A stretch of 64,000 nt of DNA from Escherichia phage Pollock, in the sequence record NC_027381.1; one strand, given 5' to 3'. This document shows, one piece after another, positions 2,054 to 23,205 of this stretch. Numbering within the stretch: the first letter of the stretch is position 1; every line of letters starts with the position of its first letter. The notes beneath the pieces were generated by a model. The model was not told the origin of the DNA and ran no database searches. It saw nothing but the letters and a program-made list of their open reading frames with translations. The translations under genes and the position numbers were made by a program.

Positions 2054-2055
2054 AA

Positions 2056-3035: not shown

Positions 3036-3043
3036 GAGAAGTA

Positions 3044-3805: not shown

Positions 3806-3827
3806 TTCTCTTTGTCGCTTCGCTCCT

Positions 3828-3852: not shown

Positions 3853-3869
3853 TTCATTTAGAGGTACTT

Positions 3870-4373
3870 ATGTTAGAAGCTCGCGGTAATATGCTTGAGA
3901 TGGATTGTGATGCTCTATGCATTACTACTAATGGATTTGTTAAAAGCAATGGTGCATCAGTTATGGGTGCAGGTATTGCTAAACAAGTTCGAATAGCTAT
4001 TCCGGGAATTGATAAGATTTTAGGACAGAAAATTGCTCGTGAAGGCAATAACGTTCATCCAATCATTAACCATAATAATATCTGGATAGTATCCTTTCCT
4101 GTTAAACCAATAACTGAAATCAGTAATGGGAGTAACTTCGTAAAACATAAATATTTCCCTGAAGGGACAACAGTTCCGGGATGGGCATGTAAAGCGAATA
4201 TCAACTTGATAGTACGTTCCTGTCATCAGTTAGTAAAACTAGCTAATCAGTATGGTTGGCAGAAAGTATTACTACCTAGACCGGGATGTGGTGCTGGAGA
4301 ACTTAACTGGAATTATGTGAAAAAGGTTATCGAACCTTTATTAGATGACAGATTTATTGTCTGTACTTATTAA
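3870..4373 (+). CDS. Macro-domain-like protein (putative ADP-ribose binding or hydrolysing)
   Basis: N-terminal DALCITTNGFVKSNGASVMGAGIAKQ resembles the macro-domain DA-x-V-N-A-A-N ... G-G-G-V motif region; C-terminal LLPRPGCGAGEL resembles the second glycine-rich loop. Confidence 0.5.
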   Translation: MLEARGNMLEMDCDALCITTNGFVKSNGASVMGAGIAKQVRIAIPGIDKILGQKIAREGNNVHPIINHNNIWIVSFPVKPITEISNGSNFVKHKYFPEGTTVPGWACKANINLIVRSCHQLVKLANQYGWQKVLLPRPGCGAGELNWNYVKKVIEPLLDDRFIVCTY

Positions 4374-4380
4374 AATATTT

Positions 4381-4587
4381 ATGAAAGATGAATTAATCAT
4401 CATTTTAAATGAAATATGGTCATTACCAGAATACCAAAATATACGTGGTCCTAAGGAAGAATTATGTAGAAGAATAACATGTACCGGAGTTCACTGTACA
4501 AATTGTCCTCTTGGTTATTTCTTAAAAGACGAAGATTACGTCTCTCAAATCCATAAAATATTGGAAGTCATTAATCATGAAATATGA
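4381..4587 (+). CDS. Small Cys-rich protein, paralog family member
   Basis: MKDELIIILNEI N-terminus; CTGVHCTNCPLGYF Cys cluster (same CTGVHC as ORF 3044). ORF track begins at 4345; ATG 4381 after the macro-domain stop is the likelier start. Confidence 0.5.
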   Translation: MKDELIIILNEIWSLPEYQNIRGPKEELCRRITCTGVHCTNCPLGYFLKDEDYVSQIHKILEVINHEI

Positions 4588-5500
4588 AACTCAACTCCTG
4601 ATTGAATCTATGTTCAACCGTCATCAAGAACGTGAACTCATTAGAAATGAATTAAGAAGTTCACCTGAAATTATGGAGTTAGTTAATGCTGCTGTTAGTA
4701 AAGCATTGGAATGGGTTAAAGGAGATTACTTTGAAAGTAAGAATAAACGTTTAGCTTTATTAGATACCAATATTTTAGAAGATTTTTATATTGATGTTGC
4801 TGGTTCATTGGCTCAGTTTGGTAAAGCTAAGTATACCCAAGTAGTAGGTATGGTGTCTGGGATGATAACTACTATGTCTCAGAAAGAGGCTATACGTACT
4901 GCTGGCGAGTTAATTTCATTAGCAGCTATGGTAGACCTAGTTGATGTGATTCCTGCGTCTATGAGCATTACAGGCTCTATGGAATTGGTTTCTCGTATTC
5001 AACTTGAACCAAAAACATTAGAACTGATTGACCAGTATCAGTATCTTCCTCCAATGATTGTTCCACCTGAACCAGTTAAATCAAATACTGGTAGTGGATA
5101 CCTGTCTATTAAATGGGATTCGTTAATTCTTAAAAAGAATCATCATGAACATGATATCTGTTTAGATAATATCAATAGATTCAATTCTGTAGCATTTTGT
5201 CTGAATGAACGAGTTATCCGTAATATTCGAGATAATCGTAAACATCTGGATAGTGCTAAAGCAGATGAGACTGCTGATGAGTTTAAAGCACGAGTAGAGT
5301 CATTCCTAAAAATGGAAAAAGAATCTATGAAAGTATTTGCAATGCTCATCAATGAAGGAAATAGATTTTATCTAACTCATAAATATGACAAACGAGGACG
5401 TACTTACTGTCAAGGTTACCATGTCTCCTACCAAGGTAATACGTATCGTAAAGCTATTCTTGAATTAGCTGATAAAGAAATAGTACCTATTGAGGAATAA
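4577..5500 (+). CDS. Phage RNA polymerase II subunit 1 (N-terminal portion of a T7-like RNAP; N4 RNAP II small-subunit analog)
   Basis: C-terminal DKRGRTYCQGYHVSYQGNTYRKAILELADKE aligns with T7 RNAP DWRGRVYAVSMFNPQGNDMTKGLLTLAKGK; upstream of the catalytic subunit ORF as in N4-like phages. Confidence 0.7.
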   Translation: MKYETQLLIESMFNRHQERELIRNELRSSPEIMELVNAAVSKALEWVKGDYFESKNKRLALLDTNILEDFYIDVAGSLAQFGKAKYTQVVGMVSGMITTMSQKEAIRTAGELISLAAMVDLVDVIPASMSITGSMELVSRIQLEPKTLELIDQYQYLPPMIVPPEPVKSNTGSGYLSIKWDSLILKKNHHEHDICLDNINRFNSVAFCLNERVIRNIRDNRKHLDSAKADETADEFKARVESFLKMEKESMKVFAMLINEGNRFYLTHKYDKRGRTYCQGYHVSYQGNTYRKAILELADKEIVPIEE

Positions 5501-5502
5501 TT

Positions 5503-5739
5503 ATGGCTGAATTATCTAAACCAGAACAACTCATTAAGATTACGTTATTACTCCGTAATATTCCAAATGAGTTAGATACGCATTTTTGTAGTACTCATCC
5601 TGCATGTGAAAAATTATGTGGACCTAAACATGATAAAAGTAAATGTGCTTTATTTACATGCTCTGAAGAAGAGATTAAGAAAACTATCTTTGGATTAGAT
5701 GCAGCAGGGAGAATGTTAGGAATTATCCCTGATGAATAA
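5503..5739 (+). CDS. Small Cys-rich protein, 78 aa (divergent)
   Basis: Multiple Cys (CSTHPAC, CGPKHDKSKC, FTC); lies between the two RNAP subunit genes. Confidence 0.4.
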   Translation: MAELSKPEQLIKITLLLRNIPNELDTHFCSTHPACEKLCGPKHDKSKCALFTCSEEEIKKTIFGLDAAGRMLGIIPDE

Positions 5740-5926
5740 AGAATTAGTTTTAATCCTTAAAGAAATAAAAAGAGTATCTGAAACTTCTAAACATGGATGT
5801 ACTGGTAGTAAATTTAAAGAATTATTTCGTTGTTTAAATGTATCTTGTGGAGTATGTATATTAAATAATATACAAAATCCAAAAAAGTATAATTATCAAA
5901 TATTCTCTATTCCAATAAATCTATGA
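5732..5926 (+). CDS. Small Cys-rich protein, paralog family member
   Basis: MNKELVLILKEI N-terminus; CLNVSCGVC cluster. Confidence 0.5.
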   Translation: MNKELVLILKEIKRVSETSKHGCTGSKFKELFRCLNVSCGVCILNNIQNPKKYNYQIFSIPINL

Positions 5927-6135
5927 ATAAACAATTTATTCTTATATTGGATTCAATTAGGGATTGGGCAAAATCAGAATTTTCTTGTAAGGGTGGACTG
6001 TTAACTATACGCGATACATATATAAATGAACATTTATGTGGGTATTTATGTACCTCATGCCCTATTGTTCAAGTAAGAAGTAAACAACTTTATCCCGACC
6101 AAATCATTCAAACTTCCTCTCAACTAATTAAGTGA
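5923..6135 (+). CDS. Small Cys-rich protein, paralog family member
   Basis: MNKQFILILDSI N-terminus; CGYLCTSCP cluster; 4-nt overlap with the RNAP catalytic subunit start. Confidence 0.5.
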   Translation: MNKQFILILDSIRDWAKSEFSCKGGLLTIRDTYINEHLCGYLCTSCPIVQVRSKQLYPDQIIQTSSQLIK

Positions 6136-7370
6136 GACTCAATATGCAACAGTTTACAGCTTTCCAATATATCAAATTAGATATTGCTAACTCTTTTGGT
6201 TTAGATAAAGAACTGTTTGATGACCGTATCAAATGGTTTGAAGAAAACAAAAATAATTTAGCTAATTTGGTAAATGATGCAGATGAACCTGCTCAATTCT
6301 ACGCAGGTATGTTGGCATACCAAGATGTACTGGAAGGTAAACCAATTGGTTATTTAGTAGGTATGGATGCTACTGCATCTGGATTGCAGTGTATGGCTGC
6401 ATTAACTGGCTGTAAGACTACCGCTGAAACAGTAAATCTTATTGACCCTAATTGTCGTAAAGATGCTTATACCGATGGCTATAAAGTCATGGGAGAACTA
6501 CTTAATGGCAAGATTGATAAGATTGACCGTAAGGATTTGAAGGGAGCTATTATGACTCACTTCTATGGTTCTCAAGCAAATCCTAGAAGTGTATTTGGTG
6601 AAAATACTATAGAACTACAAAAGTTCTATGAAACTGTTCAAACCATTGCTCCCGGTGCAAATATGCTACGAGATGATTTAATCAATCTCTGGCAACCAAA
6701 AGCACTTCAACATTTATGGGAATTACCAGATGGCTTTACTGCTGTCGTTAAAGTAATGACCATGAAAGAAGAAAGCTTTGAAGTAAATGAATTAAATAGT
6801 TCCTTTACTCATCGTTATTGGGTTAATGAGGGTCAGGATTTTGGTTTATCACTTGCTGCTAATGTTGTTCACTCTGTAGATGGGATGGTAGTACGTGAGA
6901 TGAATCGTCGTGCTAACTACGATGAAACCAAAATACAGCGTGTATATGAGCTTCTGACTGGTTCAAACAATACAGGTATTGTGGACTATACAGTAGATGA
7001 TAAACAGCTTAAGAGAGCTATTGAGCTTGCTGAAAGACATCGTTTTGTTTCTACTGTGATGATTGAGTTCATTAACCATGAGAATGTACATATGATTCCT
7101 TTATGGATTAAGAACCAACTCATCGAAATTATTGAGAAGATGTTGGCTCATAAACCATATGCATTAATTGCAATTCATGATTGCTTTAAATGCCATCCTC
7201 TGTATATGAATAACGTGCGTCAGAACTACATTGATATCTTTGCTCAGATTGCAGATAGCACAATGCTTCAAGCAATTGCATCTCAAATCTCTGGTAAACG
7301 TATTCCAGTAACTAAACTGTCTAATGACCTTTCAACATACATTCGTAAATCCAACTACATGCTTAGTTAA
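6132..7370 (+). CDS. Phage RNA polymerase II catalytic subunit (T7-like single-subunit RNAP palm and fingers)
   Basis: Motif A-like GMDATASGLQC (T7 DGSCSGIQH), motif B-like RKDLKGAIMTHFYGS (T7 KRSVMTLAYGS), NVVHSVDGMVVRE (T7 NFVHSQDGSHLRK), motif C-like IAIHDCF (T7 LIHDSF). Confidence 0.85.
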   Translation: MRLNMQQFTAFQYIKLDIANSFGLDKELFDDRIKWFEENKNNLANLVNDADEPAQFYAGMLAYQDVLEGKPIGYLVGMDATASGLQCMAALTGCKTTAETVNLIDPNCRKDAYTDGYKVMGELLNGKIDKIDRKDLKGAIMTHFYGSQANPRSVFGENTIELQKFYETVQTIAPGANMLRDDLINLWQPKALQHLWELPDGFTAVVKVMTMKEESFEVNELNSSFTHRYWVNEGQDFGLSLAANVVHSVDGMVVREMNRRANYDETKIQRVYELLTGSNNTGIVDYTVDDKQLKRAIELAERHRFVSTVMIEFINHENVHMIPLWIKNQLIEIIEKMLAHKPYALIAIHDCFKCHPLYMNNVRQNYIDIFAQIADSTMLQAIASQISGKRIPVTKLSNDLSTYIRKSNYMLS

Positions 7371-7379
7371 GGAACTTCT

Positions 7380-7760
7380 ATGTCCATTTTCACTAATGTA
7401 ACTATTACCATTGACCCATTAGGTCATTACGTATCTATACCTCGTGACCGTATCCGTGATTCTTTAGGATACATTCCTCAAATTGTGGAACGTGGAGTAC
7501 GTCAAGCCAAAGATGAAAAAGATGCTGGTTTCTGGATTTGGACAATTTATCAGTATGGTAATCCTCTAAATCCACCTGAAACCAAATTGAAATTTAAAGA
7601 TGGTATTCTGACCTATCCAAAAGAAGAACCAAAATATCCAATAGCTGTTTATCACCTTAATAATGTTGCCGGATTAGATATCCGGTTTTGGCAATATGAA
7701 CATGCTATGACTGTATATACAGTTAATGGTAAAGCAATTTTATTCGGGAGAATGGATTAA
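7380..7760 (+). CDS. Hypothetical protein, 126 aa
   Basis: ORF only; no recognisable motif. Confidence 0.45.
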   Translation: MSIFTNVTITIDPLGHYVSIPRDRIRDSLGYIPQIVERGVRQAKDEKDAGFWIWTIYQYGNPLNPPETKLKFKDGILTYPKEEPKYPIAVYHLNNVAGLDIRFWQYEHAMTVYTVNGKAILFGRMD

Positions 7761-8101
7761 TGATTAAAGTAGGTAATATGGTCAGAATGGTCTTTACTAA
7801 AGACCCAGAACAACATACATCCAATGTAATAATCAAAGGGTTATACATGGATAAAGCATGGGTAATGTATGAACAGTCAGGTAAAGATGAAATTATTGAT
7901 TTAGCTGACGTAAGCTTTGGCAACCCTATTCCAGAAGAACCTGCAAATCATTCTTTTGTAGCCAGAGACTATAGTGGTAATTGGCTATATTGGGACCATA
8001 AAAAAGGTTACTGGTATGAATGCAATGACCCAACACAACACGAAGAACAAGAAGTCTCTTTACCGATTAATCAAAGCAAGCCAACTCAACCCATTTACTA
8101 A
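7760..8101 (+). CDS. Hypothetical protein, 113 aa
   Basis: ORF with ATGA overlap to the upstream gene. Confidence 0.45.
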   Translation: MIKVGNMVRMVFTKDPEQHTSNVIIKGLYMDKAWVMYEQSGKDEIIDLADVSFGNPIPEEPANHSFVARDYSGNWLYWDHKKGYWYECNDPTQHEEQEVSLPINQSKPTQPIY

Positions 8102-8224
8102 AATCTGGTTAAATGGGCGTCATTATGACGTCCATAATGTCTTTGATAAAGGGGAATATATTCAAGCTTACTTATGGACAGGCTGGGTATATTCCCCCTG
8201 CTTATTTAATAAAGAGGATTATAT

Positions 8225-8476
8225 ATGGCATTTAGTAAATTATGGAAAGCTATCCTAGTATTCACTTTTTTGTTAATTGGTAGTGCTTATAGTAAGGAAC
8301 ACACATTAAATCCTATATCTGAAGAAATGGATGTTCAAAGAATCCATGATGATGAAGCAGGCGTTACTTGCTGGATTTTATATGTTCCTAATACATCTAG
8401 ATATCAAATGCCTGACCATTACAGTATGAGTTGTTTACCTAATACTGTAATCAAACCAGAAGCAATTAAAAAATAA
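8225..8476 (+). CDS. Small secreted protein, 83 aa
   Basis: N-terminal signal-peptide-like stretch AILVFTFLLIGSAYS. Confidence 0.4.
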   Translation: MAFSKLWKAILVFTFLLIGSAYSKEHTLNPISEEMDVQRIHDDEAGVTCWILYVPNTSRYQMPDHYSMSCLPNTVIKPEAIKK

Positions 8477-8502
8477 ATAATTAAAACTTATAACTTCATA
8501 CT

Positions 8503-8532
8503 AAGCCTCCTTTTATGGAGGCTTTTAGTTTT
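8503..8532 (+). terminator. Rho-independent terminator
   Basis: aagcctcc-ttttat-ggaggctt stem-loop followed by a T-rich run. Confidence 0.65.
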
Positions 8533-8579
8533 ATACAAATGCTTCTTATACAGGAGCATCTTTATAAAACTATGTAGGA

Positions 8580-9035
8580 TTGGATATGAAAGTTAAACTG
8601 AAAGTACTTCCATTTAATAACACCAATATGAGCTTACCTAAACCAGCAACAGATGGTTCTGCTGGTATTGATTTACGAGCCAATACAGTTATGCCATTCG
8701 AACTTAAACCGGGAGAAACTACTCTGGTAAATACTGGTTTAGCTATCCATCTGGATGATGTTCACTATGCAGGTATGATTTTACCTCGTTCTGGGTTAGG
8801 GCATAAACATGGTATTGTGCTTGGAAATCTTACAGGTCTCATTGATAGTGATTATCAAGGGGAACTGATGGTAAGCCTCTGGAATCGCTCTACAAAGCCT
8901 TTTACTATTAATCCAGGTGACCGTATTGCTCAGTTAGTTATTGTGCCTGTAATGCAGCCTGAATTTGTTATAGTAGACTCTTTTGAAGCTACTGAAAGAG
9001 GCGAAGGTGGTTTCAACTCTACTGGAGTTAAGTGA
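8580..9035 (+). CDS. dut: dUTP pyrophosphatase (dUTPase)
   Basis: Conserved trimeric dUTPase motifs: [33 protein letters not shown], and C-terminal glycine-rich motif. Confidence 0.85.
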
Positions 9036-9208
9036 TGACTGAACCAATGAGTAAGTTTGAGCTAGAAAGACATATCCATAATCTTAAGGAATATGATTCC
9101 AAGATTGCTGGTCATGAATCTGAAGTAGTTCGTCTACAAGAAGAACGTCGAGAGTACATTAATCGACACAATCTTAACAAGATTGCAGAGAAGGTATTTC
9201 CTGCTTAA
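9035..9208 (+). CDS. Small hypothetical protein, 57 aa (hand-called)
   Basis: ATG overlapping the dUTPase stop; charged helical sequence. Confidence 0.3.
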   Translation: MTEPMSKFELERHIHNLKEYDSKIAGHESEVVRLQEERREYINRHNLNKIAEKVFPA

Positions 9209-9234
9209 GCGCCTACGGCGCTCTCTTTGGTTAT
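9209..9234 (+). promoter_or_regulatory. Second-class hairpin motif (TAC loop plus TCTCTTTGG)
   Basis: gcgcc-TAC-ggcgc followed by tctctttggttat; similar elements at 10011 and 18161; function unknown. Confidence 0.3.
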
Positions 9235-9263
9235 AGCTACCTTCGGGTAGCTTTTTATTTTTT
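9235..9263 (+). terminator. Rho-independent terminator
   Basis: agctacc-ttcg-ggtagct stem-loop followed by TTTTTATTTTTT. Confidence 0.75.
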
Positions 9264-9582
9264 GGGGAAAATGATGGCTAAAGAACCAATCTCCAAACTA
9301 TGTATTCCTATTGGAGATAAATATGAAATTACCTCTAATGGGTATTCATATGTATTAGTTGAGAAAAGAACTGTTCAATCAGGAGTTAAAGCTGGGACTA
9401 CTGCTTCCAGTAATGTTGGTTATTTTCAGACTTTAGGTTCTCTTGCTAAACAGTTAATTAATAAAGAAGTATGTGAAACTAACATTACTTCTTTACAACA
9501 ATTAAATGAGCGTATCGAAGAACTAGGTATTGGTATAGCTCAGTTACTTGAACAACTTGTTAAACAAAATGAAGGTAAATGA
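9262..9582 (+). CDS. Hypothetical protein (likely true start ATG at 9271)
   Basis: ORF after a terminator; C-terminal coiled-coil-like sequence. Confidence 0.4.
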   Translation: MGKMMAKEPISKLCIPIGDKYEITSNGYSYVLVEKRTVQSGVKAGTTASSNVGYFQTLGSLAKQLINKEVCETNITSLQQLNERIEELGIGIAQLLEQLVKQNEGK

Positions 9583-10006
9583 AATGGCACTAACCAATGA
9601 ACAAAAGCAAGCACTTGAAATTGTAGCTGACTTGATTAAACAACAAGAGAATCCTCTAGTTGTTTCGGCTGGATTGGCTTTGCTGTTTAAATTGGAAATT
9701 TCCAATATGTCTCCTCGTGAAGTATTGGAACAGATTGGTAAAGAACTTAAAGCTGAACATGACCATGATTCAGGATGTACTTGTCTTGAACGTCATCATT
9801 TCTTATTGAACGTTCTGAACAATCTGGAAAAACAGAAGTTCAATGATGAAGTTACTTATAAATTGTTGAGTACTGCTGAAGATGCTTGGGACACGTTTGA
9901 AGAACGTTATGAACGTATTCCTACTGTTACCTATACACCTTCGCAATTCACCATTCAAACTGGTGTACCGGGTATTTATTTTATTCACCCTGCTGTACAG
10001 AAGTAA
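9548..10006 (+). CDS. Hypothetical protein, about 140 to 152 aa
   Basis: ORF; the start may be the downstream in-frame Met (MALTNEQ). Confidence 0.45.
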   Translation: MNNLLNKMKVNEMALTNEQKQALEIVADLIKQQENPLVVSAGLALLFKLEISNMSPREVLEQIGKELKAEHDHDSGCTCLERHHFLLNVLNNLEKQKFNDEVTYKLLSTAEDAWDTFEERYERIPTVTYTPSQFTIQTGVPGIYFIHPAVQK

Positions 10007-10010
10007 TTCT

Positions 10011-10030
10011 CGCACTTCGTGCGTCTCTTA
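10011..10030 (+). promoter_or_regulatory. Second-class hairpin motif (TTC loop plus TCTCTT)
   Basis: cgcac-TTC-gtgcg followed by tctcttagg, then a terminator-like hairpin. Confidence 0.3.
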
Positions 10031-10053
10031 GGAGTCATTTTGGCTCCTTTTTA
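10031..10053 (+). terminator. Rho-independent terminator
   Basis: ggagtca-ttt-tggctcc stem-loop followed by TTTTT. Confidence 0.6.
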
Positions 10054-10078
10054 TTAACATCTGAAAGAGGAATTTATT

Positions 10079-10528
10079 ATGGGTTTATTTGGTTTTGGTA
10101 AGAAAAAAGTTAGTCAGAAAGTAGAACAAATGCGAGCTACCGCTGGAAAGATGGAAAATAAAGATATCGTTGAAGCAGGTATCGCTGTAATGGTTGGTGT
10201 AGCATTTGCAGATAAATCTTGCTCTGATGAAGAAATTGAAATTCTGGAAAATATCATTGAATCTGATGACACCTTTGCAGAATGGCGTTCTGAAACTCAG
10301 GCAATGACTAATAAATGGATAAGCAAATTCCAGAAATTCCATCGTGGTGCAATGATGGATTTGGAAAAAGAATTTAACGACCTGAAAGGAGACCCTGCTG
10401 GTCAGAAACGTGCTTTGCTGTGTGGTATTGCCGTAGCAGAAGATGATGAAGGCATGGGTGCAGAAGAAAAAGCTTTTCTTGAAAAAGTTGCAGGTTGGGC
10501 AGGCATCCGTTTGGATACTTTACTGTAA
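10079..10528 (+). CDS. TerB-like protein (tellurite-resistance TerB domain)
   Basis: Two-repeat architecture comparable to TerB: AGIAVMVGVAFADKSCSDEEIEILENII and ALLCGIAVAEDDEGMGAEEKAFLEKVA, length about 150 aa. Confidence 0.55.
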   Translation: MGLFGFGKKKVSQKVEQMRATAGKMENKDIVEAGIAVMVGVAFADKSCSDEEIEILENIIESDDTFAEWRSETQAMTNKWISKFQKFHRGAMMDLEKEFNDLKGDPAGQKRALLCGIAVAEDDEGMGAEEKAFLEKVAGWAGIRLDTLL

Positions 10529-10690
10529 ATGGCACTGAAATTACGAGGAATAATAGTAGCCGTATTATTGTTCCTTGTAGTTGCTATCGACTTCACTAGT
10601 AAGGTGATGTCGATACTAGCAGACGGTGTATTAGTTGCTGCTGTAATAGCAATAATGTGGCCTGTATTTAAAAGGACTAACAATGAGTAA
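10529..10690 (+). CDS. Small membrane protein, 53 aa (hand-called)
   Basis: Start overlaps the TerB-like stop; hydrophobic IIVAVLLFLVVAI and VLVAAVIAIMW segments. Confidence 0.3.
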   Translation: MALKLRGIIVAVLLFLVVAIDFTSKVMSILADGVLVAAVIAIMWPVFKRTNNE

Positions 10691-11015
10691 ACCAAAAATT
10701 GAAATTGAAAAGATTGATGCTTTACGTAATGCATTTAATGCAATGTACGTATCTCATCAAGAAATATCTGTAGGTGATATTGTTATTCTACACCCTTCAG
10801 TTCCGGGAATTTTTAAAGTTCCTACTGAAGAACGTCCGGGTATCGTTACTAAATTTCTACCAAAACCAATGTATGCGTATGAAATGGCTGACGATACACG
10901 TCCAAGCCATCCTTCTTCAGCAATACAATATGATTGTGTAATCAATATCATTAATGACGATGGTGAAATTGTTCCATTCTTAATGGATTCTCGTCGCCTC
11001 CTTAAAGTTAATTAA
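10683..11015 (+). CDS. Hypothetical protein, 110 aa
   Basis: ORF; terminator follows at 11021..11050. Confidence 0.45.
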   Translation: MSKPKIEIEKIDALRNAFNAMYVSHQEISVGDIVILHPSVPGIFKVPTEERPGIVTKFLPKPMYAYEMADDTRPSHPSSAIQYDCVINIINDDGEIVPFLMDSRRLLKVN

Positions 11016-11020
11016 TCTAT

Positions 11021-11050
11021 AAGCCTACTTAGTAGTAGGCTTTCATTTTT
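11021..11050 (+). terminator. Rho-independent terminator
   Basis: aagcctact-tagt-agtaggctt stem-loop followed by a T-rich run. Confidence 0.7.
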
Positions 11051-11069
11051 CATCTGTAAAGGTAATCCT

Positions 11070-11153
11070 ATGCGTCCTACAGCTATTAAAAAAGCTATTG
11101 AAAGAGCTTTTGCAGCAGGACTTGTTCCTTTTATTAAAGGTAGTCCGGGTATT
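11070..11153 (+). CDS. MoxR-like AAA+ ATPase, exon 1 (N4 gp24-like)
   Basis: Encodes MRPTAIKKAIERAFAAGLVPFIKGSPGI, ending in the first half of a Walker A motif (GSPGI) right before an in-frame TGA. Confidence 0.65.
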
Positions 11154-11543
11154 TGATTTTACAAGATACCCTAAGCAGTGATGCTTAGTAAAAAATCCCT
11201 TGAATTGCTGGAAACCCTTAAAGCTGAATTAACTACTGCGAGTTGAAAAACAAAGCCAATGTTTAAAAATAATTCAGATATGTAGGCAATCAGCAGCCAA
11301 GCTCCTAAGGTTTAGGATATTAAGCTATGGAGAAGGTTCAACGACTAGGCGTAAGCCGTACACTCAAGTGAGTGGAAGTGGGGGACTCTTTACAAACTTA
11401 CCACCATGGAATACCTTTTGTATTTGCAAAGAAAGGTCTATGTCGTAAATGTAGTAAAGATGAAGATATAGTCTCGTCTTATGTGAAAGCATAAGCTGTT
11501 TAATAAACAGAGGGTAGCTTAACGAACTACCCTGAAGATTACG
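11154..11543 (+). ncRNA. Group I intron, ORF-less (intron 1 of the MoxR-like ATPase gene)
   Basis: Contains td-type core elements: P-like AATTGCTGGAAA, Q-like AATCAGCAGCC, R-like GTTCAACGACTAG, S-like AAGATATAGTCT; 5-prime exon ends in U and intron ends in G; splicing restores Walker A GSPGIGKS. Confidence 0.7.
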
Positions 11544-11786
11544 GGTAAATCTGCAATTATTCGTCAAATTGCAAAAGAAGCTAAATTATTGGTTATTGAC
11601 CTTCGTTTAGGTCAATGTGACCCAACTGATTTATTGGGATTTCCAAATATTGAGAATGGACGGTCTGTATATCATCCACCAAAAGATATTCCAATTATTG
11701 GGGATGAAATTCCTAAAGGATATAACGGTTGGCTGTTATTCCTTGATGAAATGAATACAGCACCTAAAGCTGTTCAGGCTGCTGCT
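11544..11786 (+). CDS. MoxR-like AAA+ ATPase, exon 2
   Basis: Encodes GKSAIIRQIAKEAKLLVIDLRL...GWLLFLDEMNTAPKAVQAAA: Walker A completion plus Walker B LLFLDEMN, matching MoxR LLADEINRAPPKTQSALLE. Confidence 0.7.
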
Positions 11787-12630
11787 TAAATTAATAGGCA
11801 TTTATGGGGGAAACCTCATATCTAAAGCTACTTAAAACGGGGAACTCTTAGTAGTGTATATACACTAAAGACAATCCGTTGCTAAATAGGAATTAAGATG
11901 CAAGAAGTTTGGAAAGCTATTCCCGGATATGAGAAAGAATATGAAATTTCTACTCATGGACGGATTAAGAGTTTAGATAGAGTCGTTCCTTGTAAACATG
12001 GCACTCGCCTTGTTAAAGGAAAATTATTAAAAACCTATATTAATCGAAAAGGGTATTTAATTGTTACTTTATCTAAAGAAAATAAACTGAAAACATATAC
12101 CGTACATCAGTTAGTTGCTCTTACATTTATTCCAAATTTCATTAAAGGCACAGAAATTAATCATAAAGACGGTAATAAATCCAATCCAGTATTAGATAAT
12201 TTAGAAATTAGCAACCCTAGCCATAACCAGTTACATGCTATAGCTACAGGTCTTAAAGCAAAGGTTGGTAAGAGTAAATACCACAATGTAACTTACATTA
12301 AAAACCCACGGGCTAAGAAAAAGTGGGCTGCAAGTATAAGTTATAATGGGGAAAAATCTTTTGGATGGAAAACATTTATGACAGAAGAAGAAGCTGCAAG
12401 ATATGTAGATAAACTTCTTGATGAAATAGGTGATACTTCCCGTTTAAGAAATTTCTAATTAATTCCTTAAATGCCCAACGACTAGTCGAAAGACGTAGGC
12501 TCAAGTGAGTCGAAAAAGTAGCTCCCCAAACAAGTAAAGTTGTGGGGATTGATATAGTCTGCTCTATATAGAAATATATAGCTGGATTAATTATCCGGGT
12601 AATGATTAACGACCATTACTGAACATAAGG
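11787..12630 (+). mobile_element. Group I intron carrying an HNH homing endonuclease (intron 2 of the MoxR-like ATPase gene)
   Basis: R-like CAACGACTAG and S-like GATATAGTCT elements downstream of the HNH ORF; exon ends in U, intron ends in G; splicing yields AVQAAAYKLLDRMVGQT, matching MoxR QSALLEAMQERQVTIGGQT. Confidence 0.7.
11898..12458 (+). CDS. Intron-encoded HNH homing endonuclease
   Basis: N-terminal WKAIPGYEKEYEISTHGRIKS (NUMOD4-like), HNH core HQLVALTF...NHKDGNKSNPVLDNLE...HNQLH, C-terminal AP2-like WAASISYNGEKSFGWKTFMTEEEAARYVD. Confidence 0.8.
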   Translation: MQEVWKAIPGYEKEYEISTHGRIKSLDRVVPCKHGTRLVKGKLLKTYINRKGYLIVTLSKENKLKTYTVHQLVALTFIPNFIKGTEINHKDGNKSNPVLDNLEISNPSHNQLHAIATGLKAKVGKSKYHNVTYIKNPRAKKKWAASISYNGEKSFGWKTFMTEEEAARYVDKLLDEIGDTSRLRNF

Positions 12631-13320
12631 TATAAACTGTTGGACCGTATGGTAGGACAAACCAAATTACATCCTAGTGTTTATATTGCTGCTGCTGGTA
12701 ACAAAGATACAGATGGAGCAATTACTACTACTATGAGTAGTGCAACTCTATCTCGTATTGTTAGTATGGAACTAGAAGTTAACTTTAATGATTGGGCTGT
12801 ATGGGCATTAGCCAATAACATTGACCATCGCATCATGGGATATCTTCAGTTCAAACCAGAAGCATTCCATAAATTTGACCCTAAAAATCTTAAAGAACCT
12901 TTTCCATGCCCACGTACATGGGAGTTCATTAACCGTGCTATTAATGGATTAGATGTATCTTTAAATTCTGATTTGGGTTTATTGTCTGGAATTATTGGTA
13001 ATGGCACTGCTCGTGAATTTATTGAGTATTGTGCTATCTATGGTGAGATTGCTTCCTTTGAAGAAATTATGTCTAATCCAGAAAGCATTGTCATCAAAGA
13101 CAGACCAGACATTAAGTATGCATATGCTGGTTTTGTAGCTTCTCGCATTACCCCTGAAAATGCATCTCAATTAATGAAATTCATTAATCGACTGCCCGTT
13201 GAATTTCAGATTGTAACTTTGAGTAATGCTTTTAAAGCTAAACCTCTCATTTCTCAAGTTCCAGAAATAATGGAATGGATTACTCGTTATGCCAACGAGT
13301 CAGGTGAAGGGATGCTCTAA
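12631..13320 (+). CDS. MoxR-like AAA+ ATPase, exon 3
   Basis: Encodes YKLLDRMVGQTKLHPSVYIAAAGNKDTDGA..., the sensor and C-terminal region of an AAA_5/MoxR ATPase; an in-frame stop lies a few codons upstream of 12631. Confidence 0.7.
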   Translation, partial: YKLLDRMVGQTKLHPSVYIAAAGNKDTDGAITTTMSSATLSRIVSMELEVNFNDWAVWALANNIDHRIMGYLQFKPEAFHKFDPKNLKEPFPCPRTWEFINRAINGLDVSLNSDLGLLSGIIGNGTAREFIEYCAIYGEIASFEEIMSNPESIVIKDRPDIKYAYAGFVASRITPENASQLMKFINRLPVEFQIVTLSNAFKAKPLISQVPEIMEWITRYANESGEGML

Positions 13321-14434
13321 TAAGGAGTTTCCTATGGATAAGAATAAAGCACTGGATTTAGCCAAAGTAGATTTATTTGCCCGTAAACAAAATACTTTTA
13401 TTTGTTCCATCTTTTGCTCACTTCAGCTTAAGTGGGACGATACCATCCCTACAGCTTGTACTGATGGTTTGAGTATCTTGATAAATCCAGATTATTTTAT
13501 GGATTTACCACGTCCAATGCGAGTGACACTTCTTGCTCATGAGACGTGGCATGTTGCTTTAAAACATGTCTTAAGGGTTACGGGAAGAAATCCAAAATTA
13601 TGGAATTATGCTTGTGATTATTACATCAATAATATGCTTGATGATGCTAAGTATGTTATTGGTACTGGTTGGCTATTAGACCATCAGTATGATGGCATGA
13701 GTGCTCCAGAAATCTATAACAAGCTACAAAAATCCAGTAAAAACCTGCCTCAAAATTTATTAGGTATGGATATTAAACCCTGTCCTTCTTCATCAGAAGA
13801 AGCTATTGAATCACAAATTGATTCTATGCTTATTCGTGGCTCTATTGCTGCAAAGCAAGGAGGACAAGCTGGAAGTATCCCCGGAGATATCCAAGCATAT
13901 ATTGATGAGCTTCTGAATCCTAAATTACCTTGGAACGATATTCTCAGAAATTTTATTAATGAGATGACTCGTAATGACTACACTTGGGCTAAACCTAATA
14001 AACGGTATTTGCCTGATATTTATTTACCTTCTCTAAATTCTGAAGGTCTAGAACATATCATTTTTTATACTGATATTTCTGGTTCAGTATCTGATACACA
14101 ATTTGGTGTGTATATCAGTGAAATTCATGCAATTAAAACAACATTGAATCCAAAACGAATTACAGTATGTACGTTCGATACAAAGATTCATGAAGTGTAT
14201 GAATTAGAAGAAGGAGATGATATTAGTAAGTGTACGTTTACAGGTAGAGGAGGTACATCTCTTACTTGTGTGTATGAACATGCTAAGAAAGAGAAACCAG
14301 AACTCATCGTAATATTTTCTGATTTGGATTGTGCTCCAATGAAGGAACAACCTACACCTAATGTCATTTGGGTATGTTTGGACAATCCAACAAAAACAGT
14401 TGATTTTGGTCAACTGATTCATGTGAAAAGTTAA
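13289..14434 (+). CDS. VWA-domain protein with HExxH motif (MoxR partner; N4 gp25-like)
   Basis: HExxH-like LLAHETWHVALKH in the N-terminal half; MIDAS-like FYTDISGSVSD in the C-terminal half; sits directly downstream of the MoxR-like ATPase. Confidence 0.65.
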   Translation: MPTSQVKGCSNKEFPMDKNKALDLAKVDLFARKQNTFICSIFCSLQLKWDDTIPTACTDGLSILINPDYFMDLPRPMRVTLLAHETWHVALKHVLRVTGRNPKLWNYACDYYINNMLDDAKYVIGTGWLLDHQYDGMSAPEIYNKLQKSSKNLPQNLLGMDIKPCPSSSEEAIESQIDSMLIRGSIAAKQGGQAGSIPGDIQAYIDELLNPKLPWNDILRNFINEMTRNDYTWAKPNKRYLPDIYLPSLNSEGLEHIIFYTDISGSVSDTQFGVYISEIHAIKTTLNPKRITVCTFDTKIHEVYELEEGDDISKCTFTGRGGTSLTCVYEHAKKEKPELIVIFSDLDCAPMKEQPTPNVIWVCLDNPTKTVDFGQLIHVKS

Positions 14435-14477
14435 TCTGCATGAGTAGGTAAATTTTAATTTACCTTTCAGATGTTTT

Positions 14478-14506
14478 TGCCCTCTTTGTGAGGGCATCTT
14501 TTTTTG
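14478..14506 (+). terminator. Rho-independent terminator
   Basis: tgccctc-tttgtg-agggca stem-loop followed by TCTTTTTTT. Confidence 0.75.
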
Positions 14507-14516
14507 GAGTTGTCTC

Positions 14517-14921
14517 ATGTTTAATATTCATAAAGCTGTACGTGATGCAGCTAATTCTATGTACCCAAAGAAAATTAAAATGGAAGTACCAAGTAATCTT
14601 CCTTTATCTAATAACCGTTGTCATTACAACGCTGTACAAGCAGTTAAAAATAATTTAGCTGCTGGAATATTAGAAGTAGTTATTATTTATAAAAATGACT
14701 GTACAGTTCATTATGTAAATGTATTACCTAATGGTACTTGTGTAGATTTCACATTAGGAGTCATGTGTATAAATGATGATTATCGTTTTATACGTCATGT
14801 TTCTCCTAATGAATATGACACCATTAATAAAACTTTAAAAAATGCTAAGGATAAGTTATATGCTTCAACCCCTTGGTACATACAGAAATTAATAAAACTT
14901 TCTGGTAAAGATTGGTGTTAA
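14517..14921 (+). CDS. Hypothetical protein, 134 aa
   Basis: ORF; Cys-containing; no recognisable family. Confidence 0.45.
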   Translation: MFNIHKAVRDAANSMYPKKIKMEVPSNLPLSNNRCHYNAVQAVKNNLAAGILEVVIIYKNDCTVHYVNVLPNGTCVDFTLGVMCINDDYRFIRHVSPNEYDTINKTLKNAKDKLYASTPWYIQKLIKLSGKDWC

Positions 14922-15736
14922 TAATGAAAGAACAAGAACAACTTAGAAAAGATATTTCTCGTATCTTTTCAATCTTTAAAGCCAGTGAATGTAAATTACG
15001 TCCTCATTTCATTCTTACTGGAGAAAGTGGTACTGGAAAAACTTTCTTAATTAAGTCTTTAACTGAACAGCATAAAATGGATTATATTGAAATTAATGCT
15101 GCTCAGCTAACTAAAGAAGGTTTATCGGGAAATAGCTTAAGTAAGGCACTTGCTCCTTTACGCCAAGCTAATGGTAATCCTGTCATCTGTTTTGTAGATG
15201 AATTCGATAAATTATTTATCGCAGGGAATAACAATAGTGAATTAGCTCATGAATCTACCAATGGAGTTCAAAACGAATTCCTTAAGATTCTTGAATCTGA
15301 ATGTACTTCTGTATTTGGTGATTATGGTAAATATGTAGATGTTCCTGTAAATAATGTTCTATTTGTATTTGCAGGAGCATTCAATGGTGAACCAAATATC
15401 ACTTTAGATAAGCTACGTACTTTTGGTGTTAAAACTGAATTTTTAGGTCGTGTGGGTTTAGTTTATAACACTGTCAAAATTAGCTTAGAAAGTCTTATTC
15501 AAGTCTTAAAAGATTCAGACACTCTCACTATGTATCTGGATTTATTTCCAGAAGTTAAACGAGAGAAAGCCATCAAAGATATCTCAGCATTTATCAAAGA
15601 TAATTATGAGATGAATACTTTGGGTATTCGTATGGTTAATACGTTAATTACTCAATATTTCATTCAAGATGGAAAACTCACCCGAGATGAAGTTAAAACC
15701 AGTACTTTCCAAAATAAACTTAAATTTGGTGAGTAG
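14912..15736 (+). CDS. AAA+ ATPase, ClpX/HslU-like nucleotide-binding domain
   Basis: Walker A GESGTGKT; TKEGLSGNSL resembles ClpX TEAGYVGEDV; Walker B ICFVDEFDK resembles ClpX IDEIDK. Confidence 0.55.
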   Translation: MVLIMKEQEQLRKDISRIFSIFKASECKLRPHFILTGESGTGKTFLIKSLTEQHKMDYIEINAAQLTKEGLSGNSLSKALAPLRQANGNPVICFVDEFDKLFIAGNNNSELAHESTNGVQNEFLKILESECTSVFGDYGKYVDVPVNNVLFVFAGAFNGEPNITLDKLRTFGVKTEFLGRVGLVYNTVKISLESLIQVLKDSDTLTMYLDLFPEVKREKAIKDISAFIKDNYEMNTLGIRMVNTLITQYFIQDGKLTRDEVKTSTFQNKLKFGE

Positions 15737-15871
15737 TACGTCTAAATCTCCTATTGCATGGGATATCTTTCGTATCCCTTCAAAACATGTATGTCGAACC
15801 AAGAAACGCACTGTAGCCACTATTGCTCGTAATAAGGGTTATCGTGTGATTCCTGTGTTCGGAAGAAGTTA

Positions 15872-15966: not shown

Positions 15967-17409
15967 ATGGCTAAGACTCTTGAAAATGAAGAAAAGAAAG
16001 TTCACGTTGCTGACGTTGTTAAACACGGTGAGAAACTGATTCTCCCTGAAAACATGTCTATGTCTGATGCAATTGATTTGCTGAAGCGTCGTCAGAAGTA
16101 CGAAGAAGAAGAAGTAATTGTTCGTCGTACTTATAACGTATTCCCATGGGATGGTGCTCATGCACTGATGCTGGCTCTGACTGAACGTTATGGTTGGGCT
16201 GCTGCTGAAGCAACTCCGGGATTCTTTGGTTCTAACCCTCCGCAAATGCTGGATGTTCAGGTTGGTTATGGTCAAACCAAGAAAGTACCTTGGGGTCGTT
16301 TCTCTTTGCCTCAAGTAGATGGATTTGTTCAGTGCTCTGCACAGAAGAAAGATGGTCGTATTAGCTTTGAACTAGTTGGTAAAGTTCTGCGTAAAGACGA
16401 AAAGACCATCGAACTGCTATTTGATACTGTAGAAAAAACTCTGCGTACTAATTCCATTTATATGGGTCAGGCTATCAAAATTCGTTTCCGTGATAACGAT
16501 GGTGAACTGTTGGAAATGCCTGAACCAGAATTTATGGATTTACGTGGTATCAGCCGTAATTCTCTGGTTTATTCTGATGATGTTCAAAATCTGATTGAAA
16601 CTAATCTGTTTACTCCGATTGAGCGTGTAGCAGATTGCATCATCAATGAAATTCCAGTTAAACGTGGTGTACTGCTTGGTGGACCATATGGTACTGGTAA
16701 AACTATGGCTGCAACTGTTGCTGCTTCTCTGGCTACCAGCGTTGGTGTTACTTACGTATATGTACCTCGTTGTGATGAACTGTCTGATGCAATTCAGTTT
16801 GCTAAGCAGTATAGCGATAAAGCGTGTGTAATCTTCTGCGAAGATATTGACCGTGCTGTATCTGGTGAACGTAGTGTTAAGATGGATGACATCCTGAATA
16901 TTCTGGATGGTATTGATACTAAAACGTCTCGCATCATCACTGTTCTGACTACTAACCATCTGGAAAATATTAACCCAGCAATGCTGCGTCCGGGTCGTCT
17001 GGATGCAATCATTGATGTTACTCCGCCAGATGCTAAAGCAGTTGAAAAACTGGTACGTCTGTATGGTCGTGATACCATTGCTGCTGATGCAGACCTGACT
17101 CTGGTTGGTGAAGCTCTGGCAGGTACTATCCCTGCGGTAATTGCAGAAGTTGTTAAACGTGCTAAGTTGCACCAACTTCAGTATCAAGAGCCGGGTACTA
17201 TGATTAAAGAAATCAGTGGTCAAGCTCTGCTGGATTCTGCTCTGACTATTCAAGCACAGCGTAAGCTGCTGGAAGAACAGTCTAAACCAAAAGTTAAAGA
17301 ACCTACCTTTAACGAAACTATTGCTTCTGCCGTTGCTCCTGCAATTGAAGCTGCGGTAAGCAAAGTTACTAATCAGGTATCTGAACTGCACGAGCGCATC
17401 TGCGACTGA
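15967..17409 (+). CDS. AAA-family ATPase, 480 aa, codon usage suggests high expression
   Basis: Walker A GGPYGTGKT; Walker B VIFCEDIDR; second region of homology NPAMLRPGRLD typical of classic AAA proteins; strong preference for CTG, CGT and GGT codons unlike most neighbours. Confidence 0.65.
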   Translation: MAKTLENEEKKVHVADVVKHGEKLILPENMSMSDAIDLLKRRQKYEEEEVIVRRTYNVFPWDGAHALMLALTERYGWAAAEATPGFFGSNPPQMLDVQVGYGQTKKVPWGRFSLPQVDGFVQCSAQKKDGRISFELVGKVLRKDEKTIELLFDTVEKTLRTNSIYMGQAIKIRFRDNDGELLEMPEPEFMDLRGISRNSLVYSDDVQNLIETNLFTPIERVADCIINEIPVKRGVLLGGPYGTGKTMAATVAASLATSVGVTYVYVPRCDELSDAIQFAKQYSDKACVIFCEDIDRAVSGERSVKMDDILNILDGIDTKTSRIITVLTTNHLENINPAMLRPGRLDAIIDVTPPDAKAVEKLVRLYGRDTIAADADLTLVGEALAGTIPAVIAEVVKRAKLHQLQYQEPGTMIKEISGQALLDSALTIQAQRKLLEEQSKPKVKEPTFNETIASAVAPAIEAAVSKVTNQVSELHERICD

Positions 17410-20516: not shown

Positions 20517-20761
20517 TGGATATCGCATTTGTAGTTTCCAAATTGATTGTTACAGAGTACACGTTGCTTAGACAATGGTGGCCTGAACAATTACGTCAAT
20601 CCAGATATGTAGATAATGGAATGACTAGAACTTACTTCTTAGATACACATCCATCCCCTGAACTTCAAGAACTCATAGAAGAGTTACATAAGTTTGGGAG
20701 AGAGTATCGACTTATAGATTTAAGAGGAGTGGAAATAGATAATGCGTCATATAATCTTTGA
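20516..20761 (+). CDS. Hypothetical protein, 81 aa
   Basis: ORF only. Confidence 0.4.
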   Translation: MDIAFVVSKLIVTEYTLLRQWWPEQLRQSRYVDNGMTRTYFLDTHPSPELQELIEELHKFGREYRLIDLRGVEIDNASYNL

Positions 20762-22688
20762 ACAAAATCAAAGATATCCAATCGCCATTCTTATTAAACC
20801 TCAACAACTAAAGAAGAAAGAGATATTAGAAGCTTATATCAATCCTACTGGAATCAAGCCAAATCAATTTATTGCATTTGACCTTGAGTACAATGGGAAA
20901 AAAGCTCCTGTATCTATGCAGAAAGACTATCTTAAAGTCTTACTACCAGAGCTTTGTAATTTAAGAACAGAATATATTCTGTGCTGTGATAGTGCATATT
21001 TCAAAACCTTAACCAAGCAATCTAAAGCAGAACCTCATTGTGGTTATGTATTGCCTTGTGTCATTCCTGGTTTTGAACATCTAAATATTATTTTCTGTCC
21101 TAATTATGCTCAGATTTTCTATGACCCTTCTGTACAGGATAAAGTTAATCTGGCTCTCAAAGTTCTAGTAGATAAGGTAAATGGTCAATACCAAGAGATT
21201 GGTAAGAACATTATCCATACTGCTTACTATCCTTCTACAGTTGAAGAAATTGAAGCTTGGCTTGAATCTCTACATCAATATCCAATTCTAGCTTCAGATA
21301 TAGAGGCATTTAGTCTTAAATTCTATAAAGCAGGTGTAGGTACTATTGGATTTGCATGGGACCAACACAATGGAGGAGCATTCGCTGTTGATTATACGAA
21401 TGAACCAGACAAGGCTGAAAGAATTAGGCAGGCTCTTAAGAAGTTTTTTGAAACTTATGAAGGCAAACTGATTTGGCATAACTCAAGTTATGACTTAACA
21501 GTGCTTATTTACCAGCTTTGGATGAATGGTTTAGTAGACCAAAAAGGATTGCTTAAGGGTTTGCACATCATGTGTCGTAATTTTCACGATACTAAGATTG
21601 TGACATATCTGGCTACAAACTCTTGTGCAGGTAATGAGTTAGGGCTAAAAGCTCAAGCTCATGAATTTGCAGGAAACTATGCACAAGAAGATATTGATGA
21701 TATTACTAAAATCCCATTACCAGACCTTCTGGAGTACAACTTAATTGACTGTCTAAGTACTTGGTATGTTGCAGACAAACATGCAGATACTATGGTATTG
21801 GATGAACAATGGGAAATTTATAATACTCTGATGTTACCTTCGCTGAAGAATATTATTCAGATGCAATTAACTGGTATGCCTATTGATATGGCAGAGGTTA
21901 AGAAGGTTAAAGCAGAAATGATTAAAGAGCGAGATGGTTATCTTAGAGCCATCAAGTCATTTGCAGTAGTAGATTTGTTAGTTAACAACCTACGTAAACA
22001 ACATGTTGCTACTAGAAATGCTACGCTCAAAACCAAGCAAATTACAATGTCTGATGAGGAGACATTAGCAATAGAGTTTAATCCAAACTCTAACCCTCAA
22101 ATGCAGGAACTTTTGTATGAAATTATGGGATTACCTGTAATTGATTTAACTGATTCTAAGCAGCCTGCTACTGGTGCAGATACTCTAGAAAAGTTAATTC
22201 ATCATACAGATGATGATAGACAGAAAAAGATTCTTGAATGCCTTATTAAATATTCTAAGGTAGAAAAAATTCTTTCTGCATTTATACCTGCATTCGAAGA
22301 AGCACCTTTAGCTGAAGATGGTACTCATTATTTATTCGGAAGCTATAACTTAGGTGGTACTGTATCTGGTCGTTTGAGTTCATCAAAACCAAACATGCAA
22401 CAAATTCCTTCCTCTAAGAGTCCTTACGCCAAACCTATAAAACGATGTTTTAAAGCTGGTAAAGGTTGGCTTCTTATTGGATTAGATTTTGCATCTCTTG
22501 AAGACCGTATTTCTGCTCTAACAACCAAAGACCCTAATAAATTGAAAGTGTATATGGGGGTGAATGTTTATACGGTTACTATAGAGGGGGTTGACCATCA
22601 TATTCGAGATGACGATACAATCATTTATGATGGTAAAACTTACACTGGTGAAGAGTTCTATGATGCTTTTACCTGTGGCCTTCTATGA
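20742..22688 (+). CDS. Family A DNA polymerase, N-terminal segment (3-prime to 5-prime exonuclease domain through polymerase motif A)
   Basis: Pol I-type motifs SGRLSSSKPNMQQIP and motif A LDFASLEDR; the ORF then runs about 45 codons further to a stop; motifs B and C lie in a different frame downstream of an HNH ORF. Confidence 0.8.
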   Translation: MRHIIFEQNQRYPIAILIKPQQLKKKEILEAYINPTGIKPNQFIAFDLEYNGKKAPVSMQKDYLKVLLPELCNLRTEYILCCDSAYFKTLTKQSKAEPHCGYVLPCVIPGFEHLNIIFCPNYAQIFYDPSVQDKVNLALKVLVDKVNGQYQEIGKNIIHTAYYPSTVEEIEAWLESLHQYPILASDIEAFSLKFYKAGVGTIGFAWDQHNGGAFAVDYTNEPDKAERIRQALKKFFETYEGKLIWHNSSYDLTVLIYQLWMNGLVDQKGLLKGLHIMCRNFHDTKIVTYLATNSCAGNELGLKAQAHEFAGNYAQEDIDDITKIPLPDLLEYNLIDCLSTWYVADKHADTMVLDEQWEIYNTLMLPSLKNIIQMQLTGMPIDMAEVKKVKAEMIKERDGYLRAIKSFAVVDLLVNNLRKQHVATRNATLKTKQITMSDEETLAIEFNPNSNPQMQELLYEIMGLPVIDLTDSKQPATGADTLEKLIHHTDDDRQKKILECLIKYSKVEKILSAFIPAFEEAPLAEDGTHYLFGSYNLGGTVSGRLSSSKPNMQQIPSSKSPYAKPIKRCFKAGKGWLLIGLDFASLEDRISALTTKDPNKLKVYMGVNVYTVTIEGVDHHIRDDDTIIYDGKTYTGEEFYDAFTCGLL

Positions 22689-23205
22689 ACAACGGTATAA
22701 GATTTTTGATGAAGGTTTCATCTTAAATCTTGCAAACAATCAACTCCTAAAACCAATTCTCAATTCTAATGGATACCTTAAAGTTGGATTAGCTAATGGT
22801 GATGGTACTCATCATCAAGAGCTACTTCATATTCTGGTAGCTAAACACTTCATTCTAAATCCTTATGGCTACAAACAGGTAAACCATAAAGATGGTAATA
22901 AACTGCATTGCCATAAGGACAATCTGGAATTGTGTTCTGCTACTCAGAACGTCAAACATGCATTTAAAACAGGACTACGCCCCGGTTATATGTCTGCTGA
23001 TGATAAAGAGAAATATCTCTTTGAGGTACTAGCAGGCAAGCAAGTTAAGGACATTGCTTTTGAAATAGGCAGACGTCCTGAAACTCTGCACAAGATGCTT
23101 AGAATCACTGCTGACCGACTTGGTATCCGAAATGAATGGGACGATGTTATGAGGAGAAATAGAAAAGATGTTGCTTTACGACAGCTTGCCAAAATCAACT
23201 CATGA
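22591..23205 (+). CDS. HNH homing endonuclease inserted in the DNA polymerase gene (true start probably downstream of 22591)
   Basis: HNH_3-type core NGYLKVGLANGDGTHHQELLHILVAKHF...VNHKDGNKLHCHKDNLE...NVKH; paralogous to the intron-encoded HNH at 11898. Confidence 0.7.
   Translation: MTIIFEMTIQSFMMVKLTLVKSSMMLLPVAFYEQRYKIFDEGFILNLANNQLLKPILNSNGYLKVGLANGDGTHHQELLHILVAKHFILNPYGYKQVNHKDGNKLHCHKDNLELCSATQNVKHAFKTGLRPGYMSADDKEKYLFEVLAGKQVKDIAFEIGRRPETLHKMLRITADRLGIRNEWDDVMRRNRKDVALRQLAKINS

Follow-up and report, generated by a model that had tools for sequence, protein, structure and literature searches.

Together with the MoxR/gp24-like ATPase encoded upstream of it, the gp25-like protein of Escherichia phage Pollock (sequence record NC_027381.1) probably forms a zinc protease that is targeted by a metal ion-dependent adhesion site (MIDAS) and assisted by AAA+ activity, as judged by analogy with the known systems in which MoxR ATPases work with von Willebrand factor A (VWA) proteins. 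The stretch analyzed, referred to below as the window, comprises 64,000 nucleotides (nt), and the gene lies on its plus strand. The first-pass annotation, made from the letters of the sequence, had assigned the gene to an open reading frame (ORF) at 13289-14434 and had described an N-terminal HETWH element reminiscent of a zinc-peptidase site and a C-terminal VWA/MIDAS motif, DISGSVSD. The reading frame exists, but its start is probably ATG 13334, which is 45 nt further downstream. This start is likelier than 13289 because AAGGAG lies at 13323-13328, the stop codon of the MoxR gene lies at 13318-13320, the nearest homologs are 364-367 residues long, and the record of Shigella phage B2 annotates the equivalent start. 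Residues are numbered here with the methionine at 13334 as residue 1; the Pfam ranges refer instead to the 381-residue ORF from 13289. The gene and its parts are as follows.

13323-13328, plus strand: Shine-Dalgarno-like AAGGAG, five nt before ATG 13334 (read from the sequence)
13334-14434, plus strand: gp25-like gene, zincin-like and VWA/MIDAS, 366 residues and stop (ORF, Pfam, homolog lengths)
13334-14041, plus strand: N-terminal domain, residues 1-236, with a predicted zincin-like core (helix, three-stranded sheet, HExxH helix, second helix) and a helical extension
13538-13567, plus strand: HETWHVALKH (HETWH at 13538-13552), containing H69, E70 and H73 of HExxH, and H78 (translation, conservation, predicted helix 60-75)
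13604-13630, plus strand: NYACDYYIN, containing N91, A93, D95, I98 and N99 (invariant columns; predicted helix 87-104, after the HExxH helix)
13769-13774, plus strand: D146-I147, a conserved Asp-hydrophobic pair in a hypervariable loop (alignment; a role as plug or ligand is hypothetical)
14054-14431, plus strand: compact C-terminal VWA domain, about residues 241-366
14072-14086, plus strand: MIDAS DxSxS, D247, S249 and S251 (DISGSVSD extends to 14095; translation, conservation)
14255-14257, plus strand: MIDAS T308 in an invariant G-x-G-G-T (translation, conservation)
14321-14323, plus strand: MIDAS D330 (translation, conservation)

Both halves of the protein fall into described families. PF13203 (DUF2201_N, "putative metallopeptidase domain") matched residues 30-249 with 147.5 bits against a cut-off of 23.2 (expect value [E] 7.6e-43) and PF09967 (DUF2201, "VWA-like domain") matched residues 258-379 with 87.9 bits against a cut-off of 26.4 (E 7.3e-25), both above the gathering thresholds and in N-to-C order. 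The two domains were paired in all 120 homologs among the matches listed from a search of 5.8 billion proteins. A profile search of cluster representatives (50% identity) collected 28,170 members at E <= 1e-3, with 10,239 still found when the limit was lowered to E <= 1e-30, and gp25-like homologs were found by tblastn in 785 of 50,697 phage records. Existing names agree with this class: COG3864, given in the notes to the record of Salmonella phage FSL SP-058 and in JGI names, is a "predicted metal-dependent peptidase," and the record of Shigella phage B2 labels the pair "MoxR-like ATPase" and "putative metallopeptidase." Compared with the DUF2201_N plus DUF2201 (COG3864) family, the gp25-like protein is a typical member and no difference was found. 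It had no match in the NCBIfam models, neither it nor exon 3 of the ATPase matched a defense system in PADLOC, and no second zincin family emerged when the catalytic core by itself was compared with Pfam at E <= 10.

Conservation was followed in an alignment of 71 homologs with 37-81% identity to the query and in a set of 84 loci, i.e., 80 IMG/VR loci plus four loci of only 20-26% identity, from rV5-like phage LL12, Rak2-like phage K64-1, a Moorella phage, and Pseudomonas jumbo phage Cassandra. An HExxH motif alone is weak evidence, because the chance of finding one in 366 residues of this composition is about 0.7% and two other ORFs of the window also contain it. In the present family, however, H69, E70, H73, R81, N91, A93, D95, I98, N99, D247, S249, S251, T308, and D330 were invariant in all 71 homologs and H78 was kept in 70. 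The same residues, HExxH, D95, and the MIDAS among them, were conserved in 83-84 of the 84 loci, down to about 20% identity, with DxSxS present in every one. Both elements of the first-pass annotation were therefore found where they had been described, HETWH with its H, E, and H invariant in the 71 homologs and DISGSVSD as part of a complete MIDAS (D247-x-S249-x-S251...T308...D330) that is equally conserved. This pattern points to strict purifying selection on the putative catalytic residues and on the MIDAS. The Glu of an HExxH motif is the catalytic general base and not a metal ligand, and the invariance of the non-ligand E70 suggests hydrolysis rather than mere metal binding.

The predicted structures are consistent with these assignments. 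AlphaFold2 modeled the whole protein with a mean predicted local distance difference test (pLDDT) score of 87.6 and residues 1-236 alone with 86.7. In the model of the N-terminal domain a mixed beta-sheet lies against an active-site helix, which is followed by a further helix, and HExxH is predicted to sit in this zincin-like core. The first-pass annotation had made its suggestion depend on a peptidase-like fold around HExxH, and the closest folds to the model were all zinc peptidases (BlaR1, proabylysin, ArdC, selecase, Spartan, deuterolysin, M48, and Wss1). The minimal zincins and M48/M56 proteins (proabylysin, projannalysin, selecase, BlaR1, Ste24, and BepA) and the SprT/Wss1/ArdC zincins share with it the core of three-stranded sheet, HExxH helix, and following helix, and BepA also showed a weak local sequence match around HExxH. 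In the Foldseek comparison with the PDB, minigluzincins ranked at the top, but with E of 0.6-2, which is no independent confirmation. The helical region of about 130 residues after the zincin core was without a solved relative. The VWA-domain model has a Rossmann-like VWA fold and resembles the VWA of NorD and the MIDAS of Midasin, although at about 125 residues it is unusually compact compared with the cellular MoxR-VWA systems and Midasin/Rea1.

Two places in the N-terminal domain could bear on how the site works. D95 follows H73 by 22 residues, on the next helix, where it shares one face with N91 and N99; judging from the conserved columns, the third zinc ligand would be either H78 (HExxH-x4-H) or D95, both of which are candidates. 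The loop around D146-I147 in the peptidase domain is hypervariable and rich in G, P, Q, and acidic residues. Position 146 is Asp in 69 of the 71 homologs, the stretches flanking it are 7-22 and 10-43 residues long, and DSSP assigned a beta-bridge to residue 147 in both AlphaFold2 models.

The gene of the MoxR-like ATPase had been described by the first-pass annotation as intron-containing. It is indeed interrupted, by two group I introns instead of one, with the following arrangement.

11070-11153, plus strand: MoxR/gp24-like ATPase exon 1, residues 1-28, ending ...GSPGI inside Walker A (tblastn with the B2 ATPase; junction read)
11154-11543: group I intron 1, 390 nt, without an ORF, splitting Walker A as GSPGI/GKS (Rfam group I model, 101 bits)
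11544-11786, plus strand: exon 2, residues 29-109, with GKS of Walker A and the LFLDE Walker B (tblastn with the B2 ATPase)
11787-12630: group I intron 2, 844 nt, carrying a NUMOD4/HNH homing-endonuclease ORF at 11898-12458 (partial Rfam hits flanking the ORF)
12631-13320, plus strand: exon 3, residues 110-338 and stop (tblastn with the B2 ATPase)

At the splice junctions T ends both 5' exons and G ends both introns. The spliced ATPase of 338 residues contains GSPGIGKS (Walker A) and LFLDE (Walker B) and matched AAA_5 (PF07728) with 26.2 bits, just above the cut-off of 22. Its sole sequence match in the PDB was the AAA ring of Midasin (E 1.8e-6), and its SP-058 ortholog is annotated as COG0714. 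Interruptions of the ATPase gene also occurred in three N4-like contigs from IMG/VR, where the inserts measure about 870-880 nt (L023 2413-3295, L036 2007-2875, and L038 3241-4123). The insert site in L023 and L036 is between residues 109 and 110, identical to that of intron 2 in the window, and in L038 it is between residues 58 and 59; the break shared by L023, L036, and the window suggests a recurrent homing site in the ATPase gene.

That this ATPase is the partner of the gp25-like protein, as the first-pass annotation had proposed, agrees with their coupling by position. In 73 of the 80 IMG/VR loci an ATPase homolog precedes the gp25-like gene on the same strand, with gaps of 14-3681 nt, and three of the seven exceptions had too little upstream sequence. 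The same linkage was seen in K64-1 (named "gp24-like/gp25-like"), the Moorella phage, N4, and a prophage-like region of Dyella. In LL12 the upstream gene encodes a 325-residue "anti-sigma factor" for which Pfam and phmmer showed no MoxR homology. No gp24-like ATPase was detectable within the 3-5 kb flanks of the gp25-like gene in L016-L018 (Vibrio pVa5-like phages) and L027; the partner may be located elsewhere in these genomes or be too diverged to detect.

The surroundings of the pair include the following features.

11021-11042, plus strand: terminator-like hairpin upstream of the pair (consensus scan, pattern match only)
14478-14496, plus strand: terminator-like hairpin and T-run, 44 nt past the gp25-like stop (consensus scan, pattern match only)
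14912-15736: AAA+ gene, ClpX/HslU-like, 274 residues
15967-17409: AAA+ gene, classical Cdc48/FtsH/PAN-like AAA, 480 residues, resembling the anti-phage ATPase IetA (PADLOC, E 3.6e-13)

Because the terminator-like hairpins bracket them, the gp24-like and gp25-like genes may form one two-gene transcription unit. The first-pass annotation had pointed to two further AAA+ ATPases next to the pair; they are present, but as lineage-specific neighbors and not as conserved partners. Homologs of the gene at 14912-15736 occurred in 16 of the 80 loci and those of the gene at 15967-17409 in only four, compared with 73 for the upstream ATPase, and the conserved unit is for this reason the two-gene pair rather than a four-ATPase cluster. 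The downstream ATPases were rejected as members of the system on these counts and on the hairpin after the gp25-like gene. The two genes are conserved in Ithacavirus and rare in other N4-like loci.

In the general model of MoxR-VWA systems, the MIDAS binds an acidic residue of a client, and ATP hydrolysis by the AAA+ protein remodels and releases that client (PMC7159879). Transferred to the gp24-like/gp25-like pair, the model would start with the capture of an acidic side chain of the client protein by the MIDAS ion. The ATPase hexamer, with the VWA protein assumed to be docked to it, would then spend ATP on remodeling either the client or the gp25-like protein itself, and the zinc site would finally cut the client with E70 as the general base. 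The client could be a phage protein under maturation or assembly, or a host protein. We infer the protease activity, the binding to the ATPase, and the order of these events alike.

Several points weigh against the protease. For the third zinc ligand there are two candidates, H78 (70 of 71) and D95 (71 of 71), and the interaction with the ATPase is read from gene linkage only. No PDB relative was detectable by sequence, either with the protein or with the family profile; the search gave only marginal VWA matches and the match to the HExxH region of BepA, with E of about 0.1-1. Full-text literature searches yielded no report of proteolysis by any family member, with only genome-annotation tables matched, and no candidate substrate was identifiable in the locus. 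Moreover, NorQ/NorD, the chelatases, and CbbQ/CbbO are well-studied MoxR-VWA systems that act without a protease.

The main rival is accordingly a non-proteolytic chaperone or metal-insertion machine like NorQ/NorD, CobS/CobT, BchI/BchD, or CbbQ/CbbO, in which the HExxH domain would serve as a metal-holding or client-binding module. We regard it as possible but unlikely. The likeness of the VWA domain to those of NorD and Midasin, an ATPase of the AAA_5/Midasin type, and the lack of any demonstrated proteolysis by the family in the literature found would all fit such a machine, and MoxR-VWA systems are usually described as chaperone/co-chaperone pairs (PMC7159879, PMC2147016). On the other hand, the closest folds to the N-terminal domain are peptidases and not chelatase subunits, the Glu of HExxH, a general base and not a ligand, is invariant throughout the family, and the Pfam name of the domain is that of a putative metallopeptidase.

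The favored explanation also has a more specific version, a latent, self-inhibited protease which is unlocked by the ATPase. The D146-hydrophobic pair would act as a pseudo-substrate in the cleft or on the MIDAS (an "aspartate switch") and would be pulled out by the MoxR ring. D146 is retained despite the long and unequal flanks of its loop, the bridge at residue 147 recurs in both models, where the model of the N-terminal domain alone offers only the zincin sheet strands 31-34, 41-43, and 47-50 as a partner, and the nearest solved structures, proabylysin and projannalysin, are self-inhibited zymogens according to their PDB titles. However, the confidence of the D146 loop is only moderate (pLDDT 76-86), and a conserved Asp could be purely structural. 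Latency of this kind is doubtful. It is still less probable in its complete form, an ATP-gated zymogen whose zinc site or MIDAS would be blocked by Asp146 until the MoxR ring extracted it and so switched on the MIDAS-targeted protease at mid-infection.

The remaining two alternatives have little to recommend them. An HExxH that arose by chance, or that has decayed to inactivity within a scaffold domain, would be compatible with the chance rate and the two other ORFs given above, but it is highly improbable: the motif lies in a helix matching the zincin active-site helix, and its conservation down to about 20% identity effectively refutes this explanation. The weakest alternative, and one that deserves practically no credence, is an HNH or homing endonuclease, the identity stated in many phage records of GenBank and RefSeq; PHROG 1314 is named "HNH endonuclease" and the same label stands on N4 gp25, SP-058, and many other records, but the protein had no HNH match in Pfam at E <= 0.01 (only DUF2201_N, DUF2201, and VWA_CoxE), its predicted folds are zincin and VWA, and the real HNH protein of the locus is the intron ORF at 11898-12458. 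The endonuclease identity was rejected since the Pfam and fold evidence contradicts it, and the label most likely goes back to a mis-annotation that was passed on between records. The mislabel, as "HNH endonuclease" or "homing endonuclease," is widespread in the gp25 family (e.g., NC_008720 11164-12306) and appears to have spread from PHROG 1314.

For the MIDAS-targeted protease that we favor, the setting is the genome of an N4-like podophage (Schitoviridae). The closest nucleotide relatives of 11000-15800 by megablast are Salmonella phages FSL SP-058 and SP-076, Shigella phage B2, and their relatives (Ithacavirus), at about 80-83% identity. An ORF of 3537 residues on the minus strand (31855-42468) has the size of the virion RNA polymerase, which is the defining trait of the N4-like group, and the window also encodes an RNA polymerase II subunit, a RecD-like helicase, and a family A DNA polymerase. 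On BLASTP similarity the gp25-like gene is assigned as the ortholog of N4 gp25 (37% identity over 376 columns, full length, E 2e-78) and the upstream gene as that of gp24 (spliced ATPase, 39% identity, E 2e-83). N4 has the same order and strand of the two genes and the same genome type, marked in the window by the ORF of 3537 residues. It differs at the 3' side of the pair, where a dCTP deaminase gene takes the place of the two AAA+ genes of the window, and the ATPase genes of N4, SP-058, and B2 are uninterrupted whereas that of the window carries its two group I introns. Table 3 of PMC4193335, together with PMC7650795, counts gp24 and gp25, both of them middle genes, among the 14 core genes of N4-like phages; PMC4193335 places them in a neighborhood of replication and nucleotide-metabolism genes.

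The idea of a peptidase joined to a VWA domain is not new, as it matches the Pfam annotation and, for phages, the MoxR plus metallopeptidase-vWA "chaperone/co-chaperone" pair of jumbo phages (Iyer, Anantharaman, Krishnan, Burroughs, and Aravind 2021, Viruses 13:63, PMC7824862). Compared by its published description, the jumbo-phage pair has the same architecture as that of the window, an N-terminal metallopeptidase fused to a vWA beside a MoxR gene, and Rak2-like jumbo phages, e.g., K64-1, contain homologs with the same Pfam domains. The role proposed for the jumbo-phage pair is virion assembly with proteolytic processing (PMC7824862). In contrast, the N4-like pair stands among middle and replication genes, and it does not appear in the virion-protein lists that text searches of PMC4193335 brought up.

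Some other observations concern the surroundings of the pair and related loci. Shortly before the pair, 10079-10528 encodes a protein with a TerB domain (tellurite-resistance-like), and a small hydrophobic ORF at 10529-10690 follows the TerB gene; it is TciB-like in the SP-058 record. The family A DNA polymerase gene of the window is apparently split into an N-terminal part at 20742-22688 (exonuclease and start of the polymerase domain), an HNH_3 ORF at 22591-23205, and a C-terminal part at 23168-24028. No match to a group I intron model was found in 22300-23500, and a different kind of intron, a split gene, or a free-standing endonuclease could each account for the interruption. In Dyella sp. 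ASV21, contig L003 (JAELTT010000005.1) carries at 1588-15209 a gp24/gp25-like pair, a thymidylate synthase, a RecD-like helicase, and a DNA polymerase A, adjoining a tyrosine integrase. This region may be an integrated N4-like element; N4-like phages are a lytic group, and integration would be unusual.

The gp25-like gene is an ordinary new ortholog in a very large, experimentally uncharacterized family, and with a known architecture and a routine ortholog of N4 gp25 the value of the case as a discovery is small. The "HNH endonuclease" label in the many public records of the gp25 family should be corrected. Since the catalytic Glu and the full MIDAS are strictly conserved down to about 20% identity, the point mutants E70A and D247A are the obvious experiment. 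None of RavA-ViaA, NorQ-NorD, CbbQ-CbbO, CoxD-CoxE, and Midasin/Rea1 is known to include a VWA partner with a zincin domain, and an ATP-gated zymogen, if true, would be the first MoxR-VWA system with proteolysis as its output. The gp24/gp25 pair is a universally conserved core pair of the Schitoviridae, and outside that family it occurs in Rak2-like and rV5-like phages and in other large phages. On the zymogen reading, an ATP-gated protease would be needed by all N4-like phages and by several large phages unrelated to them, for example, for the processing of a replication, assembly, or host protein.

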